Source: an uncultured Eubacteriales bacterium (GTDB taxonomy: Bacteria > Bacillota > Clostridia > Christensenellales > CAG-917). From it: a DNA stretch of 64,000 nucleotides. Both the position numbers and the translations under genes were made by a program. Position 1 is the stretch's first letter. Every line of letters starts with the position of its first letter. A model generated the notes under the pieces. The model saw nothing but the letters and a program-made list of their open reading frames with translations, was not told the origin of the DNA and ran no database searches. The stretch is from NCBI GenBank assembly GCA_900322215.1, contig ONYW01000001.1, positions 30 to 64,029 on the forward strand, in the 5' to 3' direction. Of the stretch, positions 8,438 to 49,239 are shown piece by piece.

Positions 8438-8758
8438 TTAAAGACGGCTCTCACCGTCTTTTGATTTTTGTTTTTTGGTTGTTGCTTTCTTTTTGTCGTC
8501 CTGCTTTTTAAGCTCGTCGAGCAGGCGGATTTTTTCTTGTTCGAGTTCTTCGTCGGACATATCCGTATACGATTTTTCCGGCGATAGTTCAAGATAGGTT
8601 TTGAGTGCCGCGCTGTCGGGAGGACAATACTTTTTGACGATCTTCTTCTTTGTCAAAATGCTGTCTCCGTTCTCGGTCACCGTATACTCTTCCTGCACCT
8701 CGTCATAGGTGTAGCCAATAGCCTTTTTGAGCAAGGCTTTTACAATTTGCTCGTCCAT
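8438..8758 (-). CDS. Short terminase small-subunit-like protein (C-terminal core only, no N-terminal HTH)
   Basis: 106 aa. KKAIGYTYDEVQEEY...KKKIVKKYCPPDSAALKTYL resembles the A-GY-Y-E...KK...PPD..A...L block I recall from phage TerS proteins. It overlaps the TerL stop by 19 nt. Confidence 0.45.
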   Translation of the reverse strand: MDEQIVKALLKKAIGYTYDEVQEEYTVTENGDSILTKKKIVKKYCPPDSAALKTYLELSPEKSYTDMSDEELEQEKIRLLDELKKQDDKKKATTKKQKSKDGESRL

Positions 8759-10200
8759 TTGTTCTGTCTTATCACGCTCCTGAGAAGTTTTTCCTTGTCG
8801 AGTTGGATCTCGCTCTTAGGCTCCGGGACTGGTATTTGCGGGGCGGGCCTTGACATGACGAAGTAGCGCATTTCGTCGAGCGCGTGGTCGTCTACCTTTT
8901 TTGGTCTGTCGCCTGCGCCCCACCAATACGATTTGATTTCACGAATGAGATTTACGCAGTTTTTGAAGATGTAAAGTTTTGGCGGTTTTTGACAAAACAA
9001 GGACTTTACACGCTGAATACCCGTGTATAAATCCTTGTTTACGTTTGTATTCACAAGAATACCCTTTTCAGAAAACAACTCTGCCACGCTCTTTTCGGAG
9101 GACAAAGTGTGTTGATTTGCGGCGCTGTCTATGAGCGCGTAGAGCCTGCCCTTCGAGTCCTTCGGCCAGTCAAGGCGGTTGGCGATTTCAAAGATTTTCT
9201 CAACGTGATAGTCTATCGTTTTGCCTCCCGCAAAATGCTCGGCTATGACGTATATCGTGCCGTCGTAGTCAACGGCATAGAAGTGACAGGACGTAGGATT
9301 TGTGAGTCCCGGGTCAATTGAAATCATATTGTACCAGTCCTTTGGCACGGAGAAAGGCTCTATCACGTGGACGTTTGCGTCAAACTCCGGATATACAAGC
9401 CCCTCGCCCGAGAAGAACCTGCCGTACCTCCTCGACTTTTGCTCGTCCTCGGACATTACGCTCGTCATAAAATTCACTTCACGAGAATCGAGATAGGGGT
9501 TGTCCGCCCACTCCATATACTCGCACCACACCTCGTCCGAGCCTGATACGTTGAGTTCTATCTCGTCGTACACCCAGGTGAGTCCTTTGAGCGGAGTCAT
9601 AGTCCCGAAGATCTCGCCGCGTTTGTCAAAGACTCGCATTTTGCACTCGTCGTAGACGTCCTTTGGCGGTTCTTCGTCAAACCATACGAAGTCGAGCGAC
9701 GTGCCCTGAAACTTTTCCCTGCCCTGATCGCAGGACTTAAAGCCGATTTTTGAGATGCCTCCAAACGAATTGCGGACTGCGATATGGTCGATTATGCCAT
9801 ACTCGGGCGAAGACTTTTTGCCCTCTCGCATGACTATGTCGACTATATGTCTTTGAGGAAGGTATTTGAGGATTTTCGCCTGCGCCACATCGCGCTGTAC
9901 CTGCTGCGTGAGGCTCACAACCCACCCGAATACGTCGCGCCTGTTCTCCCTGTAGGGATGAATGCCGAGCGCAAGCCAAACGCTCTCCACCGCACCGCAC
10001 TCCGTCTTGCCCGAGCGGTTGCCTCCAAAAACCCAACGATTGCGCTTTTGACATTTGTGAAACGCCATTTGCTTTGCATGCACCAAGTCTTTGTTGTAGT
10101 TTTTGAGCGCGTCGGTCGCGCGGAGTCTTTGTTCCTTTTCGATATTCAACAACTTTTCAACGATTTCAAAATCTTTCATACCGAGATAATAACCCCGCAT
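8740..10200 (-). CDS. Phage terminase large subunit
   Basis: Walker A GGNRSGKTE, Walker B LDFVWFDEEP, and a C-terminal nuclease-like region (ISIDPG...). The start is uncertain: AUG at 10200 or 10179, and the track's 10290 start is a UUG. Confidence 0.85.
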   Translation of the reverse strand: MRGYYLGMKDFEIVEKLLNIEKEQRLRATDALKNYNKDLVHAKQMAFHKCQKRNRWVFGGNRSGKTECGAVESVWLALGIHPYRENRRDVFGWVVSLTQQVQRDVAQAKILKYLPQRHIVDIVMREGKKSSPEYGIIDHIAVRNSFGGISKIGFKSCDQGREKFQGTSLDFVWFDEEPPKDVYDECKMRVFDKRGEIFGTMTPLKGLTWVYDEIELNVSGSDEVWCEYMEWADNPYLDSREVNFMTSVMSEDEQKSRRYGRFFSGEGLVYPEFDANVHVIEPFSVPKDWYNMISIDPGLTNPTSCHFYAVDYDGTIYVIAEHFAGGKTIDYHVEKIFEIANRLDWPKDSKGRLYALIDSAANQHTLSSEKSVAELFSEKGILVNTNVNKDLYTGIQRVKSLFCQKPPKLYIFKNCVNLIREIKSYWWGAGDRPKKVDDHALDEMRYFVMSRPAPQIPVPEPKSEIQLDKEKLLRSVIRQNKWTSKL

Positions 10201-10313
10201 ATATTCGGATTTCAAAAAATTGTGCCAAATTTTTTCAGAGAAAAACAAAAAAATCTCGCCAATCTCAAATAAACACTTTTTTTTTGGCAAGGATTATAGT
10301 ATTATATATATGT

Positions 10314-38647: not shown

Positions 38648-40015
38648 TTAGTTTTTTGTCATTAATATCACCGTTTCGACGTGGTGCGTTTGCGGGAACA
38701 TGTCGTATGGCTGAACGTAGTCTATCGTGTAAGTTGAAGACAAAGTCTTCAAGTCTCTTGCCAAGGTCTGCGGATTGCAGGAGACGTATAGGATTTTTTC
38801 AAATCCCGCTTCCTTTGCAACTGCAAGCACCCTCTCGTCACACCCCTTGCGCGGAGGGTCCAAAATGAGAACACGTTTCGTGTTGTCGCGTTCTATGCTT
38901 TCTACGAACGTCGCCGCATCTGCACATACGTTCGTCACATTGCCGATTGCAAGGTTGCGCATAAGCGCATTTGCGTTTTCGCTTGCGGATGGAACGATTT
39001 CCACCGCGGTAATTTTTGATTTTGGCAAGCGGAGTGCGATTTGCGCGGTGAGCAAACCGACTCCCGAATAAAGTTCTACGATTTCGCCGTCAAAATCCGT
39101 TCCTATATGTTCGCAAACGTCGTCGTATATTGCGTCTCTCACCTTGTTGTTGACTTGCAAAAAGGAGAGCGGAGACACGACAGCCTGGTATCTGCCAAGG
39201 TCCTGCGGGCGTTCCTCGCCGTAGACGAGAGTGGCATTGTCGCCCATGATGACGTTCGTATTTTTCGTATTGTTTGACACAAAAACCGTATAGTCAGAGA
39301 AGTGCCTGTCGAGTTTTTGTGTAAGGAGGGCGAGTTTTTCGATATTTTGTACGCTTGAATTGACGACGATAGTCAGCGTGAGCGTGTCGAGCATACGCGC
39401 GACCGCGTGGCGGAGATACCCTCTCCCAGTCTGTTCGTCATAGACGGAGAGCGCGTTTTCGTTTGCCCATTCGCCTATATCTTCGATGAGGTCGGCAGCC
39501 CACTGCCCTTGAAGCGCGCACCACTTCATCGGCACGACCGAGTGCGAACGCTTTTCAAAAAAGCCGAGGTACACCCTGCCCGAACGCTTGTTTTTGCCGA
39601 ACGGAAGCGCAAGTTTGTTGCGGTATTCCCACTCGTTGAGGCTTATAGGAGTCGGCACGTCAAGGTCAAGTCCGCCCACCTTTTTGAGCGCGCGCTTGAC
39701 AGTTTCGCGCTTCATTTCAAGTTGGAAAGAGTGTTCTACGCTTTGAAGGTCGCACCCTCCGCACTTTTCAAAATACGGGCAAACGGGTTTGACTCTATGC
39801 TCGCTTGGCTGTACGACCTCGACCACTTCGCCAAAGGCGTAGTCCTTTGAAGTCCAGGTGATACGCGCGCGAACGACGTCGCCTTTGACTGAAAAAGGAA
39901 CGAAAATAGGATAAACGCCGCACTTTGCAACGCCCTCGCCGTTAGAGCCGAAATCTACGATTTCCGCGTCTATTATGTCGCCTTTTTCGATGTCAACCCT
40001 TTTAGAATCAAACAC
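38648..40015 (-). CDS. 23S rRNA (uracil-5-)-methyltransferase RumA/RlmD family
   Basis: 455 aa. N-terminal TRAM domain, CPYFEKCGGCDLQ Fe-S motif, C-terminal LDPPRKG SAM-methyltransferase motif. Confidence 0.85.
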   Translation of the reverse strand: MFDSKRVDIEKGDIIDAEIVDFGSNGEGVAKCGVYPIFVPFSVKGDVVRARITWTSKDYAFGEVVEVVQPSEHRVKPVCPYFEKCGGCDLQSVEHSFQLEMKRETVKRALKKVGGLDLDVPTPISLNEWEYRNKLALPFGKNKRSGRVYLGFFEKRSHSVVPMKWCALQGQWAADLIEDIGEWANENALSVYDEQTGRGYLRHAVARMLDTLTLTIVVNSSVQNIEKLALLTQKLDRHFSDYTVFVSNNTKNTNVIMGDNATLVYGEERPQDLGRYQAVVSPLSFLQVNNKVRDAIYDDVCEHIGTDFDGEIVELYSGVGLLTAQIALRLPKSKITAVEIVPSASENANALMRNLAIGNVTNVCADAATFVESIERDNTKRVLILDPPRKGCDERVLAVAKEAGFEKILYVSCNPQTLARDLKTLSSTYTIDYVQPYDMFPQTHHVETVILMTKN

Positions 40016-41198
40016 TCTTTATACTCCTTTTCAAAACCTTTTTGTAGTTTGTAAGGAAGTTTTCAACCCTCTTTAATCCCGCGGACAAATCCACTCCCTT
40101 TTCCGCCTGCTTTTGCACATACCAATTCATTATGCGGAGCATATCGCGGCGCGCAGGCTTGAACGGAAGACGGAGGACGTAGCAATGCGCGGAGTTGTAC
40201 CACACTTTGCCGACGTGATACTCGTTTTTTACGCCCGCATTATCGAGGTACTTTGCCATACGCTTTGCCTCGCCGATACAAAGAGGATCGGTCGCACCGC
40301 CGTTGTTGTAGGACTCGGGAAAGTCGTGATTTATATAGTTGTAGGGATTGAGTTCTTTGAAAAACTCCCAGTTTCTCGAACCTTTCCTGCTGTTCTTGCC
40401 CGTGACGTATCTCACCATAAGCGTGTTGGTGAGAGGTATGCGGTACATAACATCCATAGAGAACGCACCGCTGATAAAGACGAGATTCGCGGGCTTTGTT
40501 TTGAGTGGCGAAAGCCCGAGTTTTTGCACGTAACTCTCATCCGTGGCGGCACAGCCGATACACGCCGCAAGATGTCCGCCGGACGAGTCGCCCGTGACCG
40601 TGATATTGTCCTTGTCAATGCCCAACTTTTCCGCATTGTCCGCGAGAAAATTGTAGGCGTCGACGCAGTCTTTCAAATCTTCCGGGAAGTAAACGCGAGG
40701 ACAAAGCCTGTGGTCGATGACTGCAACCACCGCTCCGAGCGCGGCATAAAGTCTCGCATAGCCGTCTCTGCGCGGTCTGTTGTGTATCACCCAGCCTCCG
40801 CCCGGTATATCCATAACGCAGGGAGACTTTTCTCCGACTTTGTAAGGCGGATAGTAGATGTCGAGGACGAGGTCTTCGCCGTCCACCGTCTTGTACACCA
40901 CACCCTTTTCAACCCTTATCTCACTGTCGAACGGAGTCCGACTGTTTGGCAGTGCCCTGTCCTCTTCCGCGAGGTCAAAGATATATGCCATGAGAGGATG
41001 AAGTCGCATGCCGTGTGCTTTGCGAAACTCCTTTGTCTCAATGCGAAACTCGCGCTTCTTTTCGCGCAGTTCCTGCTTTTTGGCTTTTCGCGCCTCTTTC
41101 CCCTGCTCGCTTGCTTCCCGCAAGATTTGTTTTTTGTTCACGTACGGGTAAAGTTTTTCATTCATGTACGCCGAATGAAACTCTGTAGATCTCTTCAT
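40008..41198 (-). CDS. Alpha/beta hydrolase (esterase/lipase family)
   Basis: 396 aa. IPGGGW oxyanion motif and GDSSGGHLA nucleophile elbow. Confidence 0.75.
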   Translation of the reverse strand: MKRSTEFHSAYMNEKLYPYVNKKQILREASEQGKEARKAKKQELREKKREFRIETKEFRKAHGMRLHPLMAYIFDLAEEDRALPNSRTPFDSEIRVEKGVVYKTVDGEDLVLDIYYPPYKVGEKSPCVMDIPGGGWVIHNRPRRDGYARLYAALGAVVAVIDHRLCPRVYFPEDLKDCVDAYNFLADNAEKLGIDKDNITVTGDSSGGHLAACIGCAATDESYVQKLGLSPLKTKPANLVFISGAFSMDVMYRIPLTNTLMVRYVTGKNSRKGSRNWEFFKELNPYNYINHDFPESYNNGGATDPLCIGEAKRMAKYLDNAGVKNEYHVGKVWYNSAHCYVLRLPFKPARRDMLRIMNWYVQKQAEKGVDLSAGLKRVENFLTNYKKVLKRSIKSV

Positions 41199-41230
41199 AA
41201 TTCCCTTACCAAAATTACGTTTGAAAACTC

Positions 41231-41316
41231 ACTACCCCGCCGCGCGTACGCGTGACGGGGTGTATTGTTTTCAACTTGAATGATAGTTTTGTATTGTGTT
41301 ATAGGTCGCCAATCTG
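41231..41316 (+). repeat. Decayed copy (C0) of the structured intergenic element
   Basis: Retains the CCCCG-CCGCGCGUACGCGUGA-CGGGG hairpin and the 3' end AGGUCGCCAAUCUGUGGG (compare 41473-41491, AGGUCGCCAAGCUGUGCGG). The middle is AT-rich and divergent. Confidence 0.4.
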
Positions 41317-41380
41317 TGGGATTTTATTACTTAAAATAATGTGAGATTGGTTTCTGTTATTCTTTTTTCCCAAAACCGCT

Positions 41381-41486
41381 CAGATTGGATGAGATGCTAG
41401 GAAAGGCACCTTTGGGAGAAGGGCGCGTACACGATCGTACGTAACCGACTACCAAAGGCGACTTGACAACGCAGGTCGCCAAGCTG
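41381..41486 (+). ncRNA. Structured intergenic element, copy C1 (subtype 1)
   Basis: cagauugg-GAUGAGAUGC...GGGCGCGUAC-acgauc-GUACGUAACCGAC...GACAACGCAGGUCGC-caagcug. The flanks are complementary and a UUUUCUU tract follows. Confidence 0.55.
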
Positions 41487-41509
41487 TGCGGTTTTCTTGC
41501 AATAACGTG

Positions 41510-41617
41510 ATATTTGGATGAGTTGCAAGGCATCGTGCCTTGAACAGCAGACCCAATGTACAACGCCGTACATGGTCTGGTGGGCAAGGTGCGATAACAC
41601 AGCAAATCGCCAAATAG
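41510..41617 (+). ncRNA. Structured intergenic element, copy C2 (subtype 2)
   Basis: auauuugg-GAUGAGUUG-[CAAGGCA-ucg-UGCCUUG]-[CAGACC-CA-AUGUAC-aacgcc-GUACAU-GGUCUG]-...GCGAUAACACAGCAAAUCGC-caaauag. It ends 4 nt before the pfp stop codon. Confidence 0.55.
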
Positions 41618-41621
41618 CGCG

Positions 41622-42872
41622 TTATTTAGCGTAGATCTTTTTGAGGCGCGCAAACCTAGGCAACCCATTCTCAAGCGGAGCCTTCGCGTCGCCTTGAATG
41701 AGCGGAAGCGCGTAGGTGATGAAATCGTCGCTCACGTTGTTGCCCTCTGCGTTGATCCAGCCGAGCGGAACTTTCTTTTCGGTGTTGGCGGCGTATTCGA
41801 GTGGCATGAGGACATTCTTGTTGTAGTAGTTGCCTTGCTCGTCAAAGTGACGCTCGAAGATAACCATCTTGTCCGTCTCGCCGTTCACTGCCGCGCGAAC
41901 TGCGGAAACGCCTGCCTCGAAAGCCTCTTCGACGTCGGTCTTGGACGCGAGGTGCGCTCCGCAACGTTGCATGAGTGAAAGTTCGATGCCACGTGTTTTG
42001 AATCCTGATTTTTCCTTGATGAGGTTTGCAAGGATGGACGCGACGCCACCGAGTTGCGCGTGACCGAAACTGTCGCGTGCCGCTTGCGGACCAAAGGATT
42101 CGCAAATGAGTTGACCTTCCTTGTTGTGGATACCCTCGGATACGACGGCGATACACTTGTTGCCGTTTCTCGCGCATACAGCCTTGACGTCTTCGACAAA
42201 CTTGTCGATGTCAAAGTCTACTTCCGGGAGGTAGATGAGGTCGGCGCCGAGTCCGTTCACCTTTGCGAGAGCCGCCGCTGCCGTGAGCCAGCCAGCGTGT
42301 CTGCCCATAGCCTCGATTATGCACACCATCGGCGTGTCATACACCTTTGCGTCGAGGTTGACTTCCATAACCGTAGTTGCGATGTACTTTGCCGCGGACG
42401 CATAACCCGGGCAGTGATCCGTGCCATAGAGGTCGTTGTCGATGGTCTTCGGAACGCCGATAACGTTGATGTCCCAGCCGGATTTTTGCATATACTTGGA
42501 AATCTTGTTGCAGGTGTCCATACTGTCGTTTCCGCCGTTGTAGAAGAAGTAGCGGACGTTGTACTTTTTGAAGACTTCCAAAATCCTCTTGTAGTCCGTA
42601 TCGTCAACGTCTGCGTCTTTGAGTTTGTAGCGGACGGAACCGAGTGCGGATGACGGAGTGTATTTGAGAAGGTCGATTTCTCTAAGGTCTTCCTTTGAGA
42701 TGTCGAAGAACTTCTCGTTGAGAATACCGACAATACCGTGTTCCGCGCCGTAAACTGCGGTGATGTTGTCTTGAGCGAGAGCCTCGGTGAAAACACCCGC
42801 GGCACTTGCGTTGATAACTGACGTCGGACCGCCTGATTGTCCGAACATACATGCGCCTTTCAAGTTGTTCAT
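41622..42872 (-). CDS. pfp: 6-phosphofructokinase of the long, probably PPi-dependent type
   Basis: About 416 aa from the AUG at 42872, which has an AAGGAG RBS. GQSGGPTSVINAS, GGNDS and PKTIDNDL motifs. PPi specificity is inferred from the family pattern, not proven. Confidence 0.7.
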   Translation of the reverse strand: MNNLKGACMFGQSGGPTSVINASAAGVFTEALAQDNITAVYGAEHGIVGILNEKFFDISKEDLREIDLLKYTPSSALGSVRYKLKDADVDDTDYKRILEVFKKYNVRYFFYNGGNDSMDTCNKISKYMQKSGWDINVIGVPKTIDNDLYGTDHCPGYASAAKYIATTVMEVNLDAKVYDTPMVCIIEAMGRHAGWLTAAAALAKVNGLGADLIYLPEVDFDIDKFVEDVKAVCARNGNKCIAVVSEGIHNKEGQLICESFGPQAARDSFGHAQLGGVASILANLIKEKSGFKTRGIELSLMQRCGAHLASKTDVEEAFEAGVSAVRAAVNGETDKMVIFERHFDEQGNYYNKNVLMPLEYAANTEKKVPLGWINAEGNNVSDDFITYALPLIQGDAKAPLENGLPRFARLKKIYAK

Positions 42873-42888
42873 ATTTTTCTCCTTATTG

Positions 42889-42901
42889 CACACTTCGTGT
42901 G
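42889..42901. promoter_or_regulatory. CACAC-TTC-GTGTG inverted repeat immediately upstream of the pfp RBS
   Basis: Exact 13-mer, extended to GCACAC/GUGUGC. The mRNA strand reads CACACGAAGUGUGCAAUAAGGAG. Confidence 0.4.
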
Positions 42902-42999
42902 CGTTTGTTGTTTTATTAATTTAGAATAATATTTATTTCTTCCGGCTGCGCCAAAGGCGCAAAATTAATTCTATTTATACCTTAAATAAAGTTGTTTTT

Positions 43000-43345
43000 T
43001 TCATTCAGACGGGCTATCGTTGTTTAACCCTAAATGCAACACCCCTTCCTGCTCCGCCAGGTTTCCCCACCGCGGAACCTACCGAACACAAGTTGCTCAC
43101 TTTTAAGGAATAAACAAAACTGTCGTTCGCAACCTTGCTATTCCCTACAAGAGTGTATTACTCGCTCCGGGGACACCAAGTCGGCACTCTAAAATCCGGT
43201 TTTCTCTATTCTTTGCCACTTCGCCTTTGGGACGCTCCGCAACAAAATGTTCCAAAGTCTCGTACTGAGTGCAGACCGAGGCACTCCGGGGACTCCGCCA
43301 TTGCGGAGTCGGCTCCGTCTTCGAATGAGTGTGCGTTAGAAGCCC
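43000..43345 (-). other. Unassigned GC-rich, hairpin-dense non-coding region between pfkA and pfp (candidate ncRNA or long structured leader)
   Basis: No credible ORF. Perfect hairpins at 43291-43310 (8 bp), 43267-43286 (6 bp), 43150-43190, 43107-43144 and 43224-43257. Duplicated motif CTCCGGGGAC...GTCGGC at 43165-43185 and 43284-43313. Strand not determined. Confidence 0.3.
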
Positions 43346-43359
43346 TCAAACAAACTTCA

Positions 43360-44349
43360 TTACTTCGAAATGACCTTAGCCAAATCATAAAGTTTTTCGT
43401 CAAACTCTTTTGGTATGCGAAGGGCTTCTAATACGGTTGTGTCATAGATGTCGCCGCCGCGAATGCCGACCACTCTGCCCGACTGACCGCACATGATGAG
43501 TTCTACTGCGCGCTGTGCCATACGAGCGGCGAGGACTCTGTCTGCAACCGTCGGATTTCCTCCGCGTTGCATATAGCCGAGCGCCATGTGGTTGACGCGT
43601 CTGCCCGTAGCTTCGGAGATCTCTTTGATGAGGTCGTCTTTTAGGTAGTTCACGCCTTCCGCGAGCAAAATGATCGTGGACGTCTTGCCCTTCACGTCAT
43701 AGCCTTTTTTGACGCTCTTTGCAATCTCAACGGGATCGACGGGACTTGCCTCAGGGACGATGACGTATTCCGCACCGCCTGCGACCGCCGAGTTGATGGC
43801 GATATTGCCGCTGTCTCTGCCCATAACTTCCAAAATCATGATTCTATCGTGAGAAGTGATGGTGTCGCGGAGTTTCAAAATCGCGTCGATGACAGTGTTG
43901 CACGCCGTATCGAAGCCGATAGTCGAGTCGGTATAGCCCATATCGTTGTCGATAGTGCCGGGGATACCGATGACGTTGAGTTCGGTGTTCTCGTGAAGTG
44001 CCTCCACGCCGTGGAAAGAGCCGTCTCCGCCGATGACGATGAGGTTTTCGATGCCTCTGTTGATAAGGTTTTGAGCCGCTTTCTTTTGCACTTCGGGATC
44101 CTTAAATTCCAAGCAACGAGATGTCCTGAGGATCGTTCCGCCTGTATGCACCGTGTTGGAAACGGATTTGTATTCCATCTTGAAAATCTCGTCGTTTACG
44201 AGTCCTTGATAGCCGTGCATAACGCCGTAAACTTCATAGCCGTTGTGCATAGCAAAACGAAGTGCCGTACGGATTGCCGCGTTCATGCCCGACGCGTCGC
44301 CGCCGCTTGTCAAAATAGCCAAATTTTTGTTCGTTAAATTTTTTGCCAT
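43360..44349 (-). CDS. pfkA: ATP-dependent 6-phosphofructokinase
   Basis: 329 aa. GGDASGMNAAIR, IGGDGS and PGTIDND motifs. Confidence 0.9.
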   Translation of the reverse strand: MAKNLTNKNLAILTSGGDASGMNAAIRTALRFAMHNGYEVYGVMHGYQGLVNDEIFKMEYKSVSNTVHTGGTILRTSRCLEFKDPEVQKKAAQNLINRGIENLIVIGGDGSFHGVEALHENTELNVIGIPGTIDNDMGYTDSTIGFDTACNTVIDAILKLRDTITSHDRIMILEVMGRDSGNIAINSAVAGGAEYVIVPEASPVDPVEIAKSVKKGYDVKGKTSTIILLAEGVNYLKDDLIKEISEATGRRVNHMALGYMQRGGNPTVADRVLAARMAQRAVELIMCGQSGRVVGIRGGDIYDTTVLEALRIPKEFDEKLYDLAKVISK

Positions 44350-44404
44350 ATATTACCTCGAGAATTGAATTCTAGTTTTTTATATTTATTTTCCGCTTAT
44401 AAAT

Positions 44405-44518
44405 CGTATGAGTGTGATGAGATGCGAGGAAGAGGGCCCGGGAACGGAGGGCGCGTACATATGCGTACGCAACCGACGAGCCAAGTGCCTCTGACAAAGC
44501 AGGTCGCTCACTCATGCG
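44405..44518 (+). ncRNA. Structured intergenic element, copy D (subtype 1)
   Basis: cguaugagug-u-GAUGAGAUGC...GGGCGCGUAC-auaugc-GUACGCAACCGAC...GACAAAGCAGGUCGC-u-cacucaugcg. The closing stem is 10 bp with one U-G pair. TATAAA lies at 44398-44403 and a U-rich tract at 44520-44530. Confidence 0.55.
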
Positions 44519-44520
44519 AT

Positions 44521-47500
44521 TTATTTTTTTGTTGTGAGTTTAACGCCCTTTTCCCCTACTATAAGTTGGAGTTTATGCAACAACTCGTCGTTCACGTCGA
44601 CCTTGTAGGGGAATTGCATGAGTTTGTATTCATCGCCGACTCTGACTTGTGCGCGGACAGGAGTCACGCCCGGGTGAATTTGAAGCACGCCTGTGACGAG
44701 TTCTTTCTCGCTGTTGTCGCGGAGGAGTACGTAGAGGACGCTGCTCGGAGCGGATTTTGCCTCCTCCGCCCTTTGGTTCTTCCAGGGTTCGACCTTGTCT
44801 ATCGTGACCTTTGGTTCGCTCTCGTCTTTTAAGTCAATGCGCCCCGTGAGTTTTATCGGTTCTTCGCCCTCCAAAAACGCGCCGTATCTCTCGTAGACTT
44901 TCGGGAACATGGAAAACGCAACGGAGCCCATCTTGTCCTCCACTCTACCGACAGCGAATTTGAGTTGTTTCGCCGTCGTCTTCTTTTCAAACGACGATAC
45001 GATGCAACCGAATTTCACTTGCTTGCCGTCGAGTGCTTTGTCCGCGACCATGACGGTCTCGCCGTCCTCGTTTTGTTCCTCGACGAGGAGTTGGCTCGTG
45101 TCAAAGTTGAACTCCTTGCTCCAGTCGTCGTAGTCGTCGAGCGGGTGACCGGAGATATACATTCCAAGCACTTCGCGCTCGAAGGACAGGCGTTGCGCCT
45201 TGTCGTACTCCCTCACCTCGCTATACTGGATTTCGTCGTCCTCGATGAGTTCGTCAAAGAGGGAGACTTGACCTGTGAGTTTGCTCTTTTTGTCGTTCAG
45301 GACCGTGTCCATAATGCGCTCGTATGACGCCATAAGCGTTGCTCTGCCCTTGCCGAAAGAGTCCATCGCTCCGCCCTTTATGAGGCTTTCTATCATACGC
45401 TTGTTGATTTGCCCCGCGCATCTGTCCAAAAGGTCTCGAATATCTTTGAACGGGCCGTTTTTTGCACGCTCTTCAAGCAGGTATTCCATAGCCTGCTCGC
45501 CGACGTTCTTTATGCCCATGAGTCCGTAGCGGACGTTTTCGCCCTCGATGGAGAAATATTTCTTTGAGCGGTTGATGTCAGGCGGCAAAATCTTCACTCC
45601 CGTGCGCTTGAGATAGTTCATATAGTGCTTGACTTCGTCGGCGGAGGTGATACGGTTGTTGACGACTGCGACGATAAAGTGCGACGGATAGTAAAGTTTT
45701 AGATACGCGGTTTGATAGGTCAAATACGTGTACGCCGCCGCGTGGGATTTGTTGAACGCGTATGAGGCAAATTTCAAAATCTCGTCAAAGAGTTTGTTCG
45801 CGACCTTTTCGTCCACGCCGTTTGCGACCGCGCCCTCGACGACCTTGCCCGTCTTGTCTCCGTCAAGCACGCCGCCGTGGAGGAATATATCTCTCATTTT
45901 TTGCAGGACTTCGAGTTTTTTCTTTGCGATAGCACGGCGCATTATGTCCGCTCCGCCAAAGGAGAAGCCCGCGAGTTTTTGCGCTATTTGCATGACCTGC
46001 TCTTGGTAGACGATACAGCCGTAGGTATTGCCCAAAATCTCCTCCAAGCGCGGATCGTCGTATACGACTTGATCGGGGTGACGTTTGCCCTGCAAGAAGA
46101 GGTCGATAAACTGCATAGGTCCCGGGCGGTACATGGAGATGCCTGCGGTGACGTCTTCAAAGTTCTCGGGTTGCAGTTGCGCCATAAACTTTTTCATACC
46201 GCCGCTTTCAAGTTGGAACACGGCCTCGCAGTCGCCCGAGCCGATAAGTTTGTAGACCTCGGGGTTGTCATAGCCGAGTTCGTGGAAGTCGAGCGTTATG
46301 CCCTTGTCTTCCTTTATGAGTTTCAAAGCCTCGTCGATGTCCGTCAAGGTTTTGAGCCCCAAAAAGTCCATTTTTAGAAGACCGAGTTCTTCGACTATCG
46401 CCTTGTCAAACTGCGTCGTAATGACAGGACCGTTTCTTGAAAGAGCGCAATGTTCGACGACGGGATCCGCGCAAATAACGACGCCCGCCGCGTGCATCGA
46501 GGTCTGCCTCGGCATACCCTCGAGTTGCATGGCGATGTCGATGCAGTTCTTTGCCGCCTCGTTCGTCTCGTAAATCTTTTTGAAATCAGGGCTGTAGAGT
46601 TCGCTCCCCTCGATGAGCAGTTGCGGGAGCAACACTTTGCCGACGGGGATCTCCTTGACCCAGTTGTTCGCTTCGTTGTACGGAACATCGAGCACGCGCG
46701 CGACGTCTTTGACGACCGCCTTTGCGCTCATCGTGGAGTATGCGATGATTTGAGAAACGTTGTCTTTGCCGTACTTTTTGATGCAATAGTCGATGACTTC
46801 CTGCCTTCTTACAAAGCAGAAGTCGATATCGAAGTCAGGCATAGACACGCGCTCTTCCGACAAAAATCTTTCAAAGAGAAGATTGTATTTGAGCGGATCG
46901 ATGTCCGTGATACCGATAGAAAACGCGACGATACTGCCACAACCGCTTCCGCGTCCGGGGCCTACCGGTATGCCCATTTGTTGCGCCGCGTGCACGTAGT
47001 CCCAAACAATGAGGAAGTAGCCGTCGAATCCGCATTTGTGAATGACGCCGAGTTCGTATTCGAGCCTCGTCTTGATCTCTTCGGTTATGACCTTGTATTT
47101 TTTTGTGATGTTCTTTTCCGCAAGATAGCGAAGATACCCTGCCTCGTCGAGTCCGAGACTCTCCATCTCTTCGCAGGTGTATTTCGGAATGATAGAGGCG
47201 TGCTTTGTGATGAAATAGTCGCCGTCCACCTTGTCCGCGATTTCCTTTGTCGAAGCGATAGCCTCGGGGCACCAGGAGAAGAGTTCTTCCATCTCCTCCC
47301 CGCTCTTGAGATAGAACTCGTCATTCGTAAAGCGCGCGGGATTCATCTCGCTCTTTTTGCAACCGAGAGTTATGCACATCATCGTGTCTTGAAGATCCGC
47401 GTCCTCTTTTTCTATGTAGTGAACGTCGTTTGTCGCGACGACTTTGACGCCTATCTCCTTTGCAATTCTACAGAGCGGATTCATGACGATTTTGTCCTCG

Positions 47501-48087
47501 TCGAGGTGATGGTCTTGAAGTTCTATATAAAAGTCGCCGGGAGCAAACATATCGCGCATGCGAATTGCCAGCTCCTTTGCCTCGTTATACTTCCCCTGCA
47601 AAATGAGGTGCGGAATTTGCCCCGCAAGACATGCGGAGAGGCAAATAAGCCCTTCGCTATGTTGAGCAAGGACGTTGAGGTCAATCCTCGGTTTCATATA
47701 AAAACCGTCCACAAACGCCATAGAGGAGAGTTTCATTAGGTTTTTATAGCCCGTCATATTTTTGGCGAGAAGTATGAGGTGATAGCGCTGTTTGAGCACG
47801 TCGGGAGTCTTTGCATACATGTCGTCCGCGACGTAAAATTCCTCCCCGATGATAGGCTTTATTCCGTCCGCGCGAAGAGTGGACACAAACGTGTACACTC
47901 CGTACATATTGCCGTGGTCGGTGATGGCAACGGCGGACATACCGCGCGCCTTTAGAGCCTCGGAGAGAGGATGCAGTTTTTTCGTCTTGTTCGGATCTTT
48001 CGGATCTGGCACGACTTTAATAAGCCTCACCGCTCCGTCAAGCAAACTGTATTCCGTGTGTAAATGTAGATGTACAAAATCTGTCAT
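44521..48087 (-). CDS. dnaE: DNA polymerase III alpha subunit
   Basis: 1188 aa. N-terminal PHP domain (FVHLHLHTEYSLLDG), polymerase core and a C-terminal OB region. Confidence 0.95.
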   Translation of the reverse strand: MTDFVHLHLHTEYSLLDGAVRLIKVVPDPKDPNKTKKLHPLSEALKARGMSAVAITDHGNMYGVYTFVSTLRADGIKPIIGEEFYVADDMYAKTPDVLKQRYHLILLAKNMTGYKNLMKLSSMAFVDGFYMKPRIDLNVLAQHSEGLICLSACLAGQIPHLILQGKYNEAKELAIRMRDMFAPGDFYIELQDHHLDEDKIVMNPLCRIAKEIGVKVVATNDVHYIEKEDADLQDTMMCITLGCKKSEMNPARFTNDEFYLKSGEEMEELFSWCPEAIASTKEIADKVDGDYFITKHASIIPKYTCEEMESLGLDEAGYLRYLAEKNITKKYKVITEEIKTRLEYELGVIHKCGFDGYFLIVWDYVHAAQQMGIPVGPGRGSGCGSIVAFSIGITDIDPLKYNLLFERFLSEERVSMPDFDIDFCFVRRQEVIDYCIKKYGKDNVSQIIAYSTMSAKAVVKDVARVLDVPYNEANNWVKEIPVGKVLLPQLLIEGSELYSPDFKKIYETNEAAKNCIDIAMQLEGMPRQTSMHAAGVVICADPVVEHCALSRNGPVITTQFDKAIVEELGLLKMDFLGLKTLTDIDEALKLIKEDKGITLDFHELGYDNPEVYKLIGSGDCEAVFQLESGGMKKFMAQLQPENFEDVTAGISMYRPGPMQFIDLFLQGKRHPDQVVYDDPRLEEILGNTYGCIVYQEQVMQIAQKLAGFSFGGADIMRRAIAKKKLEVLQKMRDIFLHGGVLDGDKTGKVVEGAVANGVDEKVANKLFDEILKFASYAFNKSHAAAYTYLTYQTAYLKLYYPSHFIVAVVNNRITSADEVKHYMNYLKRTGVKILPPDINRSKKYFSIEGENVRYGLMGIKNVGEQAMEYLLEERAKNGPFKDIRDLLDRCAGQINKRMIESLIKGGAMDSFGKGRATLMASYERIMDTVLNDKKSKLTGQVSLFDELIEDDEIQYSEVREYDKAQRLSFEREVLGMYISGHPLDDYDDWSKEFNFDTSQLLVEEQNEDGETVMVADKALDGKQVKFGCIVSSFEKKTTAKQLKFAVGRVEDKMGSVAFSMFPKVYERYGAFLEGEEPIKLTGRIDLKDESEPKVTIDKVEPWKNQRAEEAKSAPSSVLYVLLRDNSEKELVTGVLQIHPGVTPVRAQVRVGDEYKLMQFPYKVDVNDELLHKLQLIVGEKGVKLTTKK

Positions 48088-48153
48088 ATTTGTTCCTATA
48101 TCGTTTGTATGCTAAAATTTTTGTGTGTTTGTATAAATTTTTCGCTTTTAGAA

Positions 48154-48273
48154 GGTGCGTGAGTGGGATGAGATGCGCGGCATCGCGCTTTGAATGACCA
48201 ACCCAGTGTACTCAAGCGTACACGGTTGGGCAGGCAAAGTTCGATAACAAAGCAGGTCGCCCACTCACACGCC
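48154..48273 (+). ncRNA. Structured intergenic element, copy E (subtype 2)
   Basis: ggugcgugagugg-GAUGAGAU-[GCGCG-gcau-CGCGC]-[CCAACC-CA-GUGUAC-ucaagc-GUACAC-GGUUGG]-...UCGAUAACAAAGCAGGUCGC-ccacucacacgcc. The 3' stem half contains the whiA stop codon and its last two sense codons. Confidence 0.55.
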
Positions 48274-49239
48274 TGAAAGTTCTTCGCTTATCTCCACCAA
48301 CTTCCTAAGTCTATGATTTAGCGCGCTCTTGCTTATGCCAAGCGCGTCCGCAAGGTCTTGAAGACTGCTCTCGGGGTTGTCCATACGCGCTTGCGCCGTC
48401 TCTTTGAGAATCGGGGTGAGAGCCTCAAAAAGCCCCGCGCCCATGATTTTGCCTATTGCGAGCAAGTGCTTGCTTGCGGCGGCGAAAGTCTTGTCCATAT
48501 TTGCCGTTTCGCAGATGATAGCGCGGTTGAGGCTGTTTGCAGTCTCGCGTTCGTTGATTATCATTTGGAGTTTCAACACGCTCTCGGTGAGTCCGAAGAT
48601 GGAGAGCAGTCTTGCGATCTCGTCCTTGTCTTTGAAGTAGACGAGCGTATGGTCTCCTCTCTCGCTCGTCTTTGCCTGCAAGCCGAAGAAGTCGAGAAGT
48701 GCGACCAAATCGTTTGCATAGTCCTCGTCGTCCAGTTGAAATTCGAGATGGTAGCCGTCGCGCTTCTCCTCATCCGCGGACATGGACGGCACGTACACGC
48801 TGCCCGTGCCCAAGAAGAGTCCTGCAAGAAACGCGCTCTTTTCCTCTTCCGTTTCAAGGAGTTCGTTCGGAGTGCCTTCGACAAAGCCGTTTAAGGCGTC
48901 GCCGTCCACCGTCATAAGGCGGAAGTCTACGAGTATCTGTTTTGAAAACCCGTATGGCACCTGGAGCGAACAAATTTGTTTGCCAGCCTTAGGTCCCGAT
49001 TTTGCGGTGGTGAGAGAGAGTTCAAACTCGGTCGGATAGAGCGACTTGAACGCCTCAACTATCTTCATACCTTCGTCAAAACTGTCGAGCGCAAGGCACA
49101 AATTCATACGCTTATTCACGATTTCAAGCGTGCCGACCGCCTTTGTGAGTCCCGCGAGAAAAGCCGTAAGTCGAGACTTGTCGCTTGGCAAATTTTCGGT
49201 TATTTCATATTGCACTTCATCCTTAAAAGTCTCGCTCAT
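48265..49239 (-). CDS. whiA: DNA-binding protein WhiA
   Basis: 324 aa. LAGLFLGTGS LAGLIDADG-like region and a C-terminal HTH (LQDLADALGISKSALNHRLRKL). Confidence 0.9.
   Translation of the reverse strand: MSETFKDEVQYEITENLPSDKSRLTAFLAGLTKAVGTLEIVNKRMNLCLALDSFDEGMKIVEAFKSLYPTEFELSLTTAKSGPKAGKQICSLQVPYGFSKQILVDFRLMTVDGDALNGFVEGTPNELLETEEEKSAFLAGLFLGTGSVYVPSMSADEEKRDGYHLEFQLDDEDYANDLVALLDFFGLQAKTSERGDHTLVYFKDKDEIARLLSIFGLTESVLKLQMIINERETANSLNRAIICETANMDKTFAAASKHLLAIGKIMGAGLFEALTPILKETAQARMDNPESSLQDLADALGISKSALNHRLRKLVEISEELSGV

Follow-up and report, generated by a model that had tools for sequence, protein, structure and literature searches.

A structured repeat abutting stop codons in bacteria of at least six phyla is probably a non-autonomous mobile element

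The window, by which we mean the whole 64-kb stretch of DNA analyzed, comes from the genome of a rumen member of the Clostridia and carries on its minus strand whiA (48265-49239), dnaE (44521-48087), a 423-aa PFK-family gene (41622-42893; pfp in the first-pass annotation) and an rRNA methyltransferase gene (79-630), with pfkA between dnaE and pfp, and an esterase gene after pfp. At the boundaries of these genes we found copies of a repeat of ~125 nt, here termed the rod repeat, in which arms of ~14-17 bp (the closing stem P1 of the first-pass annotation) surround a core of ~92 nt limited by GAUGAGAUGC and GCAGGUCGC. The + strand alone carried four full copies (C1, C2, D and E), a copy truncated at the edge of the window (A) and a short 3' remnant (C0):

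1-90, + strand: copy A, cut by the window edge (26.8 bits over 1-84, a 5'-truncated hit)
41271-41329, + strand: C0, truncated decayed copy, found by sequence comparison and missed by the covariance model
41340-41350, + strand: extra partial arm copy TGTGAGATTGG, 21 nt outside the GATGAG-side arm of C1
41372-41495, + strand: C1, full copy (arm 41372-41387, core 41388-41479, arm 41480-41495; 74.8 bits)
41501-41626, + strand: C2, full copy (arm 41501-41516, core 41517-41610, arm 41611-41626; 72.5 bits)
44399-44524, + strand: D, full copy (arm 44399-44415, core 44416-44507, arm 44508-44524; 81.3 bits)
48153-48274, + strand: E, full copy (arm 48153-48166, core 48167-48260, arm 48261-48274; 78 bits)
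41388-41479, 41517-41610, 44416-44507 and 48167-48260, + strand: matches to the motif GATGAGWTGC-N60-90-GCARRTCGC

The motif matched the window at these four places, all on the + strand, with 0 matches expected from 100 shuffles, and a covariance model run over the 64 kb recovered the four full copies at 72-81 bits and the edge-cut copy A at 26.8 bits, with no further matches. The first-pass annotation had described six related segments in the same orientation, which is correct for the four full copies and for A. The remaining segment, 41231-41316, taken at that time for a decayed copy, is mostly unrelated: the truncated copy C0 occupies only ~41271-41329, in which the end of the core on the 3' side, TAGGTCGC (41302-41309), and an arm, CAATCTGTGGGATTTTATTA (41310-41329), can still be recognized, and it is shared with the congener L289. 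Positions 41235-41260 form a CCCCG...CGGGG hairpin immediately upstream of where the esterase gene starts; all five genomes compared at this place have it, even the one whose site is empty. Because 41231-41316 is mostly something else, the proposed tandem array of three copies becomes two copies and a 3' remnant. The arms also had to be redefined, since they measure 14-17 bp instead of 8-10 bp, and they do not differ completely between copies, but are diverged forms of one clade consensus, AAAACCGCNCAATTTG / CAAATTGNGCGGTTTT. The two subtypes and the compensatory changes listed earlier are both present in the copies.

Most of the copies in the window reach into the end of a gene. Copy A consists of the 3' two thirds of the core (to GCAGGTCGC, 66-74) followed by an arm (75-90) that includes the TGA (79-81) and the final codons of the rRNA methyltransferase gene; its uncut version is present in the same-species contigs L308/L309, and an apparent 83-nt length polymorphism at this site proved to be a scaffold gap of Ns. 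The arm of C2 overlaps the TAA (41622-41624) of the PFK-family gene, the arm of D contains the TAA (44521-44523) of dnaE, and the arm of E encodes the TGA (48265-48267) and the final residues of whiA. Thus, the claim that every locus lies at the stop codon of the higher-coordinate minus-strand gene holds for A, C2, D and E, which abut or overlap it, and fails for C1 and C0, which C2 separates from the stop codon in the array. Congener L289 has an orthologous C2 copy and no C1, and the 10-bp repeat flanking C1 occurs there only once. The extra partial arm at 41340-41350 falls within the segment missing from L289. Similar extra arm copies were seen in Desulfobacterota, and we considered whether they were a universal feature of the rod repeat, but they are restricted to Desulfobacterota, Porphyromonas and a few Clostridia copies. 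A small ORF starting at the conserved AUG was also rejected after reading the sequences, as its peptides are not conserved.

Each copy in the window folds as a single long imperfect hairpin, with RNA z-scores of -5.8 to -9.5 for the + strand. From the base upward, the conserved fold has a basal G-C pair, a bulged A, a UGA/UCG helix, a purine.purine 2x2 loop and a UGC/GCA helix, followed by more purine-rich loops and an apical GUAC...GUAC hairpin. When 63 copies were aligned, 94% of cells were paired, compared with 76% after shuffling and 24-40% when partners were slid, and changes on both sides were found in 22/30 pairs. Copies of variant subfamilies showed base-pair flips in the basal helices, and the differences between the orthologous C2 copies of the window and L289 were mostly paired changes. 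The rod fold is therefore strongly backed by covariation, in agreement with the earlier view of a selected single-strand fold that is neither coding nor a simple repeat, although template-switch 'correction' of palindromes could mimic part of this covariation.

The better-folding strand is the GATGAG strand, which is more stable than its complement by 7-15 kcal/mol with RNA parameters and by 2-10 kcal/mol with DNA parameters. The + strand of the window folds better even though it is pyrimidine-rich overall. With anchored motifs left out, non-Watson-Crick oppositions on the GATGAG strand were purine.purine in 233 cases and pyrimidine.pyrimidine in 13, and this strand retains U.G/G.U pairs, G.U being the commonest state at the base of the apical helix (29/63 copies). 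Wobble asymmetry (G.T vs A.C), used as a strand test, showed no overall difference. Since the well-folding strand is antisense to the gene that the repeat abuts, host transcription yields the complementary strand.

The rod repeat is far from confined to one genome. Besides the five or six copies in the 64-kb window, we detected 68 in metagenome contigs from rumen and gut that total 338 kb, and true relatives with the same folded core in at least six phyla (Bacillota, Bacteroidota, Desulfobacterota, Patescibacteria, Pseudomonadota and Spirochaetota). Cultured hosts include Ezakiella coagulans DSM 20705, Porphyromonas somerae DSM 23386, Lacibacterium aquatile KCTC 32017, Oceanobacter mangrovi and Variovorax strains. 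No match to the window was obtained at Rfam 15 gathering thresholds, including the hammerhead, twister, hairpin, pistol, hatchet, HEARO, SRP and Y RNA families, consistent with the earlier statement that no known family fits; nor was any found over the rod repeats in the loci of 18 relatives, where only tRNAs and an L10 leader were identified elsewhere. Relaxing the threshold to E<=10 gave nothing over full copies, one chance match (E=3.8) at 41229-41281 over the esterase-leader hairpin, and, for one Bacteroidales copy, only chance-level miRNA and snoRNA matches. A blastn search with copy D against 72,556 plasmids gave no match, and in viral contigs there was 1 true copy among the 119 matches scored (120 stretches); the rod repeat is therefore not phage-borne. 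Full-text literature searches, by description and by sequence strings, returned no account of it; the REP/RAYT papers that came up deal with another type of repeat.

Several observations define the unit as one that moves together with its arms. In the alignment, sequence information drops to zero past the 16-nt arms, whose flank consensus is aAAACcGC...GCgGTTTT, and the conserved ends GAUG...CGC lie inside these variable arms. Arm length is ~17 bp both in the Firmicutes-type group and in the other phyla. The same arms are found at many unrelated loci and are complementary within each copy, and one Desulfatibacillaceae MAG contains 14 copies with near-identical arms. The first-pass annotation had argued that ordinary direct target-site duplications would not produce complementary flanks, but such flanks do not speak against a mobile element: the same arms recur at many unrelated loci and belong to the mobile unit, as do the inverted repeats of MITEs. 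Like a MITE, the rod repeat is short, non-coding and multi-copy, with sharp common ends and terminal inverted repeats of 16-17 bp.

We compared six insertion sites among syntenic relatives. Between whiA and dnaE, the window and L129/L130 carry a copy, the site is disrupted in L251, and L126, L128, L252, L254 and L256 have an empty site of 24-46 nt. Between dnaE and pfkA, a copy was present only in the window (171 nt, compared with 17-99 nt and no copy in six other genomes). In the gap between pfkA and pfp, L128, L129 and L289 have a copy and L126 and L254 have none. The pfp-esterase site was filled in five genomes and empty in L254, the esterase-methyltransferase site was filled only in L289, and the rRNA-methylase end had a copy in two species and was empty in L312. 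L254 was empty at four of the six sites. The gene order whiA, dnaE, pfkA, second PFK-family gene, esterase, rRNA methyltransferase was the same with or without the rod repeat, and no arm-like sequence was found at empty sites. Some orthologues have decayed (the pfp copy of L129 scored 26.8 bits, and a copy in L310 scored 57 vs 75 bits), and copies often form tandem arrays. Two filled/empty congener pairs showed direct duplications of 9-15 bp, and Desulfatibacillaceae copies have TA at both ends; a general scan for target-site duplications was not above control, and TA target duplication was not demonstrable in the subfamily of the window. We rejected the idea, suggested by the whiA C-terminus, that the gene-side arm is native target sequence forming an inverted target duplication, because nothing arm-like is present at empty sites and these arms recur at many loci. 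An apparent retention of arms at orthologous sites with the core swapped instead represents independent insertions of the commonest arm subfamily.

Gain and loss between congeneric genomes, arms that move with the core, and decay in place argue for mobility, and the rod repeat is not a resident sRNA gene. We conclude that it is probably a non-autonomous mobile DNA element, similar to MITEs, REPINs and ERICs, whose fold would be required for its own spread. A putative mobilizing enzyme acting in trans would recognize the conserved fold in the single-stranded GATGAG strand, and covariation would then arise without a host function, because only copies keeping the fold would leave descendants. Insertion, or survival after insertion, would be strongly polar, such that the GGTCGC-side arm meets or covers the stop codon of an opposite-strand gene; a copy landing within the last codons would provide, through its arm, the C-terminus and stop that the gene then uses. 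Effects on the host are likely, though secondary, and would include a large hairpin at the mRNA 3' end and, in the Firmicutes subfamily, an A-tract/GC stem/T-tract that resembles a two-way terminator. As to the source of the enzyme, the loci examined (up to 20 kb) contained no recurrent neighboring protein, multi-copy transposase or RAYT gene, no autonomous parent with matching ends, and no linked transposase, recombinase or reverse transcriptase. Ten window ORFs (on the + strand or otherwise unannotated) encode no transposase, integrase or reverse transcriptase, and a search for long versions with arms flanking a gene gave only tandem or partial copies.

The unusual point of the rod repeat is its polarity relative to stop codons. 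In 59/71 copies, the gene flanking the GGTCGC side lies on the opposite strand, and in 46 of these 59 the stop codon is within ~10 nt of the end of the model hit. In 37/50 cases, 11-20 nt separate the end of the stop codon from the core, and the placement holds for any stop codon (TAA 35, TGA 11, TAG 4). In every phylum examined, the GGTCGC-side arm is at or over an opposite-strand stop codon in most copies, and the spacing from stop to core is the same in other phyla despite unrelated arms. A DNA transposase is not expected to give such precise polar placement, which hints at an RNA-level function or mechanism. It raises the possibility that the rod repeat is a cis-element of the upstream gene's mRNA, read in the gene sense as GCGAYCUGC...GCAUCUCAUC, and acting as a 3'-end stabilizer, a terminator or a coupler of translation to termination; the hairpin would begin within the ribosome footprint of the stop codon, and mobility would be merely the means of spread. 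Polar adjacency, the fixed spacing and the arm length of ~17 bp in both groups favor this idea, as do the folding of the gene-sense RNA (z -4.4 to -6.3) and the resemblance of the arms of the Firmicutes subfamily to an A-tract/GC stem/T-tract. However, the mismatches and conserved wobble pairs point to the opposite strand, and a gene-sense T-tract (at least 6 T in 10 at the stem end) follows the stem in just 8/50 Firmicutes-type copies and 2/20 copies from other phyla. Moreover, the same housekeeping genes lack the rod repeat in congeners, copies decay, and the second and third copies of tandem arrays adjoin no stop codon. We give the cis-element a small but real chance of being correct.

We give a low probability to a bolder form of the mobile element, in which structured elements across phyla would spread with fixed polarity 3' of stop codons by way of a folded single strand complementary to the transcript. 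In one version, read-through mRNA would be copied into a cDNA rod that integrates, making the rod repeat a bacterial SINE-like retroelement; in keeping with this would be the variable A-run on the gene side, the extra sequence, likewise variable, at the far end, and C0, of which only the 3' part remains. In the other version, the repeat would represent a new class of attC-like folded-DNA recombination site at ordinary chromosomal genes.

As a separate alternative, the rod repeat could be a folded single-stranded DNA site recombined by a tyrosine recombinase or an HUH (Y1) enzyme, forming a new attC-like or REP/REPIN-like class. The geometry is attC-like, with the structured strand antisense, the start at or over the stop codon and arrays in the same orientation; a bulged base and an unpaired 2x2 spacer lie by the hairpin base, and the strand asymmetry persists under DNA folding parameters. 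Nevertheless, RYYYAAC/GTTRRRY boxes are at neither end, there is no GTAG/CGTC tag, the repeat is 3-5 times the size of a REP, and these dispersed copies have syntenic housekeeping genes, and no cassettes, as neighbors. Neither an integrase nor a Y1 transposase turned up near the copies, and at least one insertion has a 9-15-bp direct duplication, which such enzymes do not make. These points make the single-stranded DNA site improbable.

The first-pass annotation had also proposed an sRNA gene family or a self-cleaving or processing RNA, which would be independently transcribed with the polarity of GATGAG and lie antisense to the neighboring genes at their 3' ends. The better folding of this strand with its conserved U.G/G.U pairs, purine-rich internal loops with opposed G and A (candidate tandem G.A pairs) typical of structured RNAs, and sequence conservation across phyla are consistent with this proposal, and on the GATGAG strand a T-run (defined as for the gene-sense T-tract) follows 20/50 Firmicutes-type copies. 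The T-run is found, however, in only 1/20 copies from other phyla. The unit is without a promoter, because sequence information ends exactly at the ends of the 16-nt arms; no conserved promoter moves with it, and a promoter scan found promoter-like sites at no more than chance level. In most loci the neighboring genes all run in the opposite direction, leaving no obvious driver of the GATGAG strand, and there is no likeness to Rfam ribozymes or sRNAs even at E<=10. Presence and absence between close relatives, decaying orthologues and tandem pile-up are further evidence against a resident RNA gene, and we regard this proposal as quite improbable.

Finally, insertion of the core into loops of pre-existing terminator hairpins, the flanks being old terminator stems, was suggested by the stem-like outer arms in Firmicutes (AAAACCGC/GCGGTTTT) and their frequent mismatch 8 bp from the core, and was rejected because relatives' empty sites have no such hairpin, identical full-length arms occur at many unrelated loci, and the arms in other phyla are not terminator-like.

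If confirmed, the rod repeat, taken as a mobile palindromic element, would be among the most widely distributed structured repeats in bacteria, one missing from Rfam 15, with hosts spanning rumen and human-gut Clostridia, Bacteroidales, sulfate reducers, candidate-phyla-radiation bacteria, proteobacteria and spirochaetes. Its copies alter how essential genes (whiA, dnaE and glycolytic kinases) end, at both the C-terminus and the 3' end, and will confuse gene callers and ncRNA screens. The antisense stop-codon rule, with ~16 nt between stop and core, provides a testable clue to a mobilization mechanism or a 3'-end function.

Among known repeats, the ERIC/IRU elements of Enterobacteriaceae and Vibrio are non-coding imperfect palindromes of ~127 bp, dispersed in transcribed intergenic regions near gene ends, at sites that are present or absent between relatives. 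The rod repeat resembles them in size, in forming one long imperfect hairpin and in variable site occupancy, but it has no sequence similarity to them, occurs across at least six phyla, its core conserved and its arms variable, and adds strict polarity and stop-codon abutment. Correia elements (CREE/NEMIS) and RUP/BOX are MITE-like, ~100-150 bp long with inverted ends, and are co-transcribed, and can be terminators or processing sites. Unlike the rod repeat, the Correia elements of Neisseria and the pneumococcal RUP/BOX each stay within one genus or family and conserve their terminal repeats, and neither is known to have a polar placement at stop codons. Mycobacterial MIRUs are intercistronic, have a fixed orientation to the flanking genes, and their ends overlap the stop codon of the upstream gene. 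Fixed orientation and overlap with the stop codon are shared with the rod repeat, but MIRUs are tandem minisatellite units with small ORFs and no long hairpin, and there is no similarity in sequence or structure.

REP/BIME/REPIN elements form hairpins at gene 3' ends, are thought to act as folded single strands, occur in tandem clusters and persist in genomes for long periods (PMC3116915, PMC3733652), and the REP itself is a palindromic unit of 20-40 nt, one end of which bears a GTAG or CGTC tag (PMC3733652). Hairpin repeats at gene 3' ends and tandem clusters are common to both systems. In contrast, the rod repeat is ~125 nt long and has no GTAG/CGTC tag in our alignments, and whereas a REPIN conserves its two ends, the rod repeat has variable ends and a conserved interior base of the rod. 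REPs and REPINs go with RAYT (TnpA-REP) transposases of the Y1 type, whose gene is flanked by the repeats, and the loci of up to 20 kb around the rod repeat showed no such gene.

The attC sites of integrons are widespread imperfect hairpins of 57-141 nt, in which the functional folded strand is antisense, the site starts at or over a stop codon, and arrays have the same orientation. Their defining R'' (RYYYAAC) and R' (GTTRRRY) boxes are missing from the rod repeat, and variation is at the tip of attC, but at the hairpin base of the rod repeat. Furthermore, attC sites lie in promoterless cassette arrays, usually by intI, whereas the rod repeat is dispersed among fixed housekeeping genes. Its core, conserved across phyla, and its variable ends are the opposite of what is seen in an ordinary MITE.

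The first-pass annotation had described the hairpin element, a ~125-bp repeat in which two 16-17-bp arms surround a ~92-nt core with a GATGAG side and a GGTCGC side, as a structured family, RNA or single-stranded DNA, of open function. Pairs of GATGAGWTGC...GCARRTCGC motifs 60-90 nt apart occurred four times in the window, all on the + strand, and in none of 100 shuffles. A covariance model, R1, gave 72-81 bits for the four full copies (C1 and C2 in tandem, D and E) and 26.8 bits for the edge-cut copy A at 1-84, and its scan of the whole 64 kb detected no copy beyond these five. The copy sequences transcribed in the annotation were correct on re-reading. Housekeeping genes neighbor the copies:

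79-630, - strand, rRNA methyltransferase
40008-41198, - strand, esterase
41622-42893, - strand, 423-aa PFK-family enzyme (called pfp in the annotation)
43360-44349, - strand, pfkA
44521-48087, - strand, dnaE
48265-49239, - strand, whiA

In copies A, C2, D and E the GGTCGC-side arm includes, internally or at its outer end, the stop codon of the methyltransferase, PFK-family, dnaE and whiA gene, respectively. A decayed copy proposed at 41231-41316 proved to be composite, since only TAGGTCGC (41302-41309), an arm (41310-41329) and some decayed core could be retained. A CCCCG-loop-CGGGG hairpin at 41235-41260, followed by TTTGGGGGA-like sequence, lies just upstream of the esterase start codon and is kept in all five genomes compared there, including one with an empty pfp|esterase spacer; it may terminate the upstream gene or serve the esterase as a leader or RBS hairpin. 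The arms had been thought unrelated between copies, but those of this clade are versions of AAAACCGCNCAATTTG / CAAATTGNGCGGTTTT. Rumen and gut contigs, and Ezakiella coagulans, commonly carry tandem arrays of 2-3 same-orientation copies 12-60 nt apart, like the one between pfp and the esterase in the window (compared contigs L283 362-730, L306 11-244, L296 299-536, L286 8636-8919, L305 1457-1693, L293 11964-12218 and L012 6438-6684), and members of one array can differ in subtype.

Other features were seen beside the copies. Between pfkA and the PFK-family gene, a 466-nt spacer (42894-43359; 41-44 nt in L126 and L254) contains a different, GC-rich repeat with the motif ...CACTCATTCGAAGACGGAGCC..., which has no Rfam match and a related copy in the same spacer of L251 (7207-7545). 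Within 1966-2550 of L251, another related copy of this GC-rich repeat, inverted, interrupts the whiA-side hairpin-element copy. Just past the window's left edge, at about 1475-1690 of the same-species contig L308, TTAGGAA heptamer repeats lie beside copy A, followed by 4-5 tandem ~23-nt units that combine ATATCATCA with a short variable hairpin; in L260 TTAGGAA repeats come after an unrelated copy as well. The phage terminase large-subunit domain of an ORF at 8740-10290 (- strand) points to a prophage, or what is left of one, in the window's left part.

The hairpin-element fold is under selection. Each copy is predicted to form a single rod-like hairpin rather than a multi-branched RNA, with a closing helix of 14-17 bp. 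RNA folding energies were -55 to -66 kcal/mol on the + strand (z -5.8 to -9.5) and -46 to -59 kcal/mol on the - strand, and with DNA folding parameters the + strand was still more stable in all four copies. From a MAFFT alignment (A4) of 63 copies drawn from the window, relatives, and rumen and gut metagenomes, RNAalifold predicted 30 pairs, 22 of which keep pairing through changes on both sides; 94.1% of alignment cells were paired, compared with 76.1% in shuffles (reached by 0 of 500) and 24-40% with partners slid, and doubly changed cells in the structure numbered 343 versus 91. Copies outside the search pattern carry basal-helix flips from UGC/GCA to AGC/GCU, AAC/GUU, GGC/GCC or UAC/GUA, as well as an A-U to C-G change in the UGA/UCG helix. 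Where the orthologous C2 copies of the window and its congener L289 (about 80-88% DNA identity) diverge, they do so mainly through paired changes, which confirms the compensatory CCAACC-to-CAGACC example of the annotation. Read from the base on the GATGAG strand, the rod consists of the arm, a G-C pair, a bulged A, the pairs U.G, G-C and A-U, a 2x2 purine loop (GA/GA, GA/GG or GA/AA), UGC/GCA, more purine-rich internal loops, and the apical hairpin, which in most phyla has a second GA/GA loop beside it and a closing GUAC...GUAC.

The purine.purine bias and the G.U pairs indicate that it is the GATGAG strand, whether as RNA or single-stranded DNA, whose folding matters. Non-Watson-Crick oppositions on this strand in 39 distinct copies, counted without positions fixed by the search pattern, were purine.purine in 233 cases and pyrimidine.pyrimidine in 13, an asymmetry that is not compositional, since the whole window + strand is pyrimidine-rich, with GC and AT skew both negative. 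The pair closing the apical hairpin was most commonly G.U (29 of 63 copies), and a basal U.G was present in 63/63, but within the sequence motif that found most copies. Scattered G.T and A.C oppositions were equally frequent and gave no strand signal.

Placement of the copies is polar. Among 76 copies surveyed, 71 had a neighbor on the GGTCGC side, on the opposite strand in 59, and in 46 of those 59 the stop codon fell within about 10 nt of the model match, which includes 10 nt of arm. The end of the stop codon lay 11-20 nt upstream of the core in 37/50 and 0-4 nt upstream in 10/50 (TAA 35, TGA 11, TAG 4), and the better-folding strand is antisense to the gene whose stop codon adjoins. Stop codons hardly ever adjoin the GATGAG-side arm, even with a gene ending there; the polarity therefore follows the gene and not only replication. 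Copies from Bacteroidales, Patescibacteria, Variovorax, Ezakiella and Desulfobacterota keep the same stop spacing with arms unrelated in sequence, and median arm length is 17 bp both in Firmicutes-type copies and in other phyla. A terminator role is unlikely to be the general reason for stop placement, since T-tracts at the stem end are frequent in the Firmicutes subfamily only, there mostly on the GATGAG strand.

The exact WhiA protein of the window was found in rumen metagenomes only, and syntenic contigs were reached through homologues at 71-83% identity.

Gene spacers with (filled) or without (empty) a copy
whiA/dnaE: filled in the window and L129/L130; disrupted by another repeat in L251; empty (24-46 nt) in five genomes
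dnaE/pfkA: filled in the window only
pfkA/pfp: filled in three genomes; empty in two
pfp/esterase: filled in five genomes; empty in L254
esterase/methyltransferase: filled in L289 only
rRNA-methyltransferase end: filled in two species; empty in L312

The hairpin element is very probably mobile. Identical arms recur at unrelated loci, and on each side sequence information falls to zero one base outside the 16-nt arm, which leaves the unit without a promoter of its own; promoter-like matches near copies were at chance level. Orthologous copies decay with loss of conserved motifs, as in the pfp copy of L129 and in L310, with CTCGGC for CTCATC. Of the functions offered by the annotation, a structured mobile repeat agrees with the filled and empty sites, the shared arms and the sharp ends, whereas an sRNA gene or ribozyme is not best supported, given the filled and empty sites, the decay and the lack of a promoter in the unit. 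The empty sites examined had neither a hairpin, which rules out insertion into loops of terminators, nor arm-like sequence, which rules out arms copied from target DNA. The best-supported identity is a structured non-autonomous mobile repeat. No recurrent protein family was found beside copies, and none of ten window ORFs checked (+ strand or otherwise unannotated) was a transposase. The fold may serve the spread of the element itself by way of a single-stranded intermediate, a proposal to which we give about even weight.

Where insertion fell within the last codons, the arm provides a new C-terminus and stop. WhiA ends in ELPDxE-stop at most empty sites versus ELSGV-stop and ELSDVE-stop at filled ones, the L289 esterase in arm-encoded ENPCD-stop, and the methyltransferase in KNA-stop in place of KN-stop. 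Direct duplications were seen at two filled/empty congener pairs: the L289 esterase insertion is flanked by GAAA(A)GGAG, possibly up to 15 bp, and window copy C1 by TTATTGCAAG / TTATTTTAAG, where L289 has one TTATTTCAAG. A general 9-mer duplication scan in the flanks of 87 copies was not above control. The gene-side junction often lies within an A-run, and at the far (GATGAG-side) end 10-32 extra nt sometimes separate the arm from the direct repeat. In the window an 8-nt overlap (40008-40015) joins the esterase gene to that of the tRNA (uracil-5) methyltransferase; in L289 a copy lies between them (7555-7665), and the ribosome-binding region GAAAAGGAG occurs in duplicate, once on either side of it. 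At 1940-2060 of L251 the whiA 3' end (ATTGCCGACGAAC...) occurs twice, one being a native-type C-terminus that closes the gene, followed ~50 nt downstream by an element-fused pseudo C-terminus (…LSGT-stop) and then GCGATCTGC; the doubled end suggests repair or replacement of an altered gene end.

Rfam 15 at gathering thresholds gave no match in the window and none over elements in 18 loci of other phyla, and at E<=10 nothing covered any full copy, so that the annotation's lack of a match to known RNA families holds at both levels. In a one-genome-per-species pattern scan, for which we estimate ~1000 chance matches, most matches were chance; at least about 45 among the matches listed were true relatives, judged by a ~90-nt core plus long complementary flanks.

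Relatives, with phylum assigned by record title
Bacillota: Christensenella sp., Ezakiella coagulans, Clostridia MAGs
Bacteroidota: Porphyromonas somerae, Muribaculaceae, Alistipes, Bacteroidales
Desulfobacterota: Desulfatibacillaceae, Syntrophobacteraceae, others
Patescibacteria: Parcu-, Uhr-, Kaiser- and Saccharibacteria
Pseudomonadota: Lacibacterium, Variovorax, Oceanobacter, gammaproteobacterial MAGs
Spirochaetes: one MAG

A more specific pattern retrieved 49 metagenome stretches, mainly rumen and human gut, on which the covariance model placed 68 copies, many as tandem pairs or triplets. Only 1 of 119 scored matches in viral contigs was a true copy, and a plasmid search with the element returned nothing. 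In the Desulfobacterota unit the GATGAG-side arm occurs a second time, in direct orientation, 41 nt upstream of the core (CCGTTGAWAAAC; L006, L010, L017, L019 and others of Desulfatibacillaceae MAG D1M01_5; L021, L066, L078, L083, L118), and the whole unit is bounded by TA-N...N-TA, with 2-4 copies per 8 kb in these loci; in one Desulfatibacillaceae MAG the whole unit, with TA on either side, is common to 14 copies.

A literature search that included conserved sequence strings found no description of the hairpin element. It is the same kind of repeat as ERIC, Correia, REPIN and MIRU-like repeats. Its better-folding strand runs antisense to the gene with the adjoining stop codon, the geometry of integron attC sites; the copies lack, however, both the boxes that define attC and a setting among cassettes. 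Three of its features are unusual and apparently undescribed: the conservation of the core between phyla, a purine-loop architecture that is asymmetric between strands, and the polar position at stop codons.
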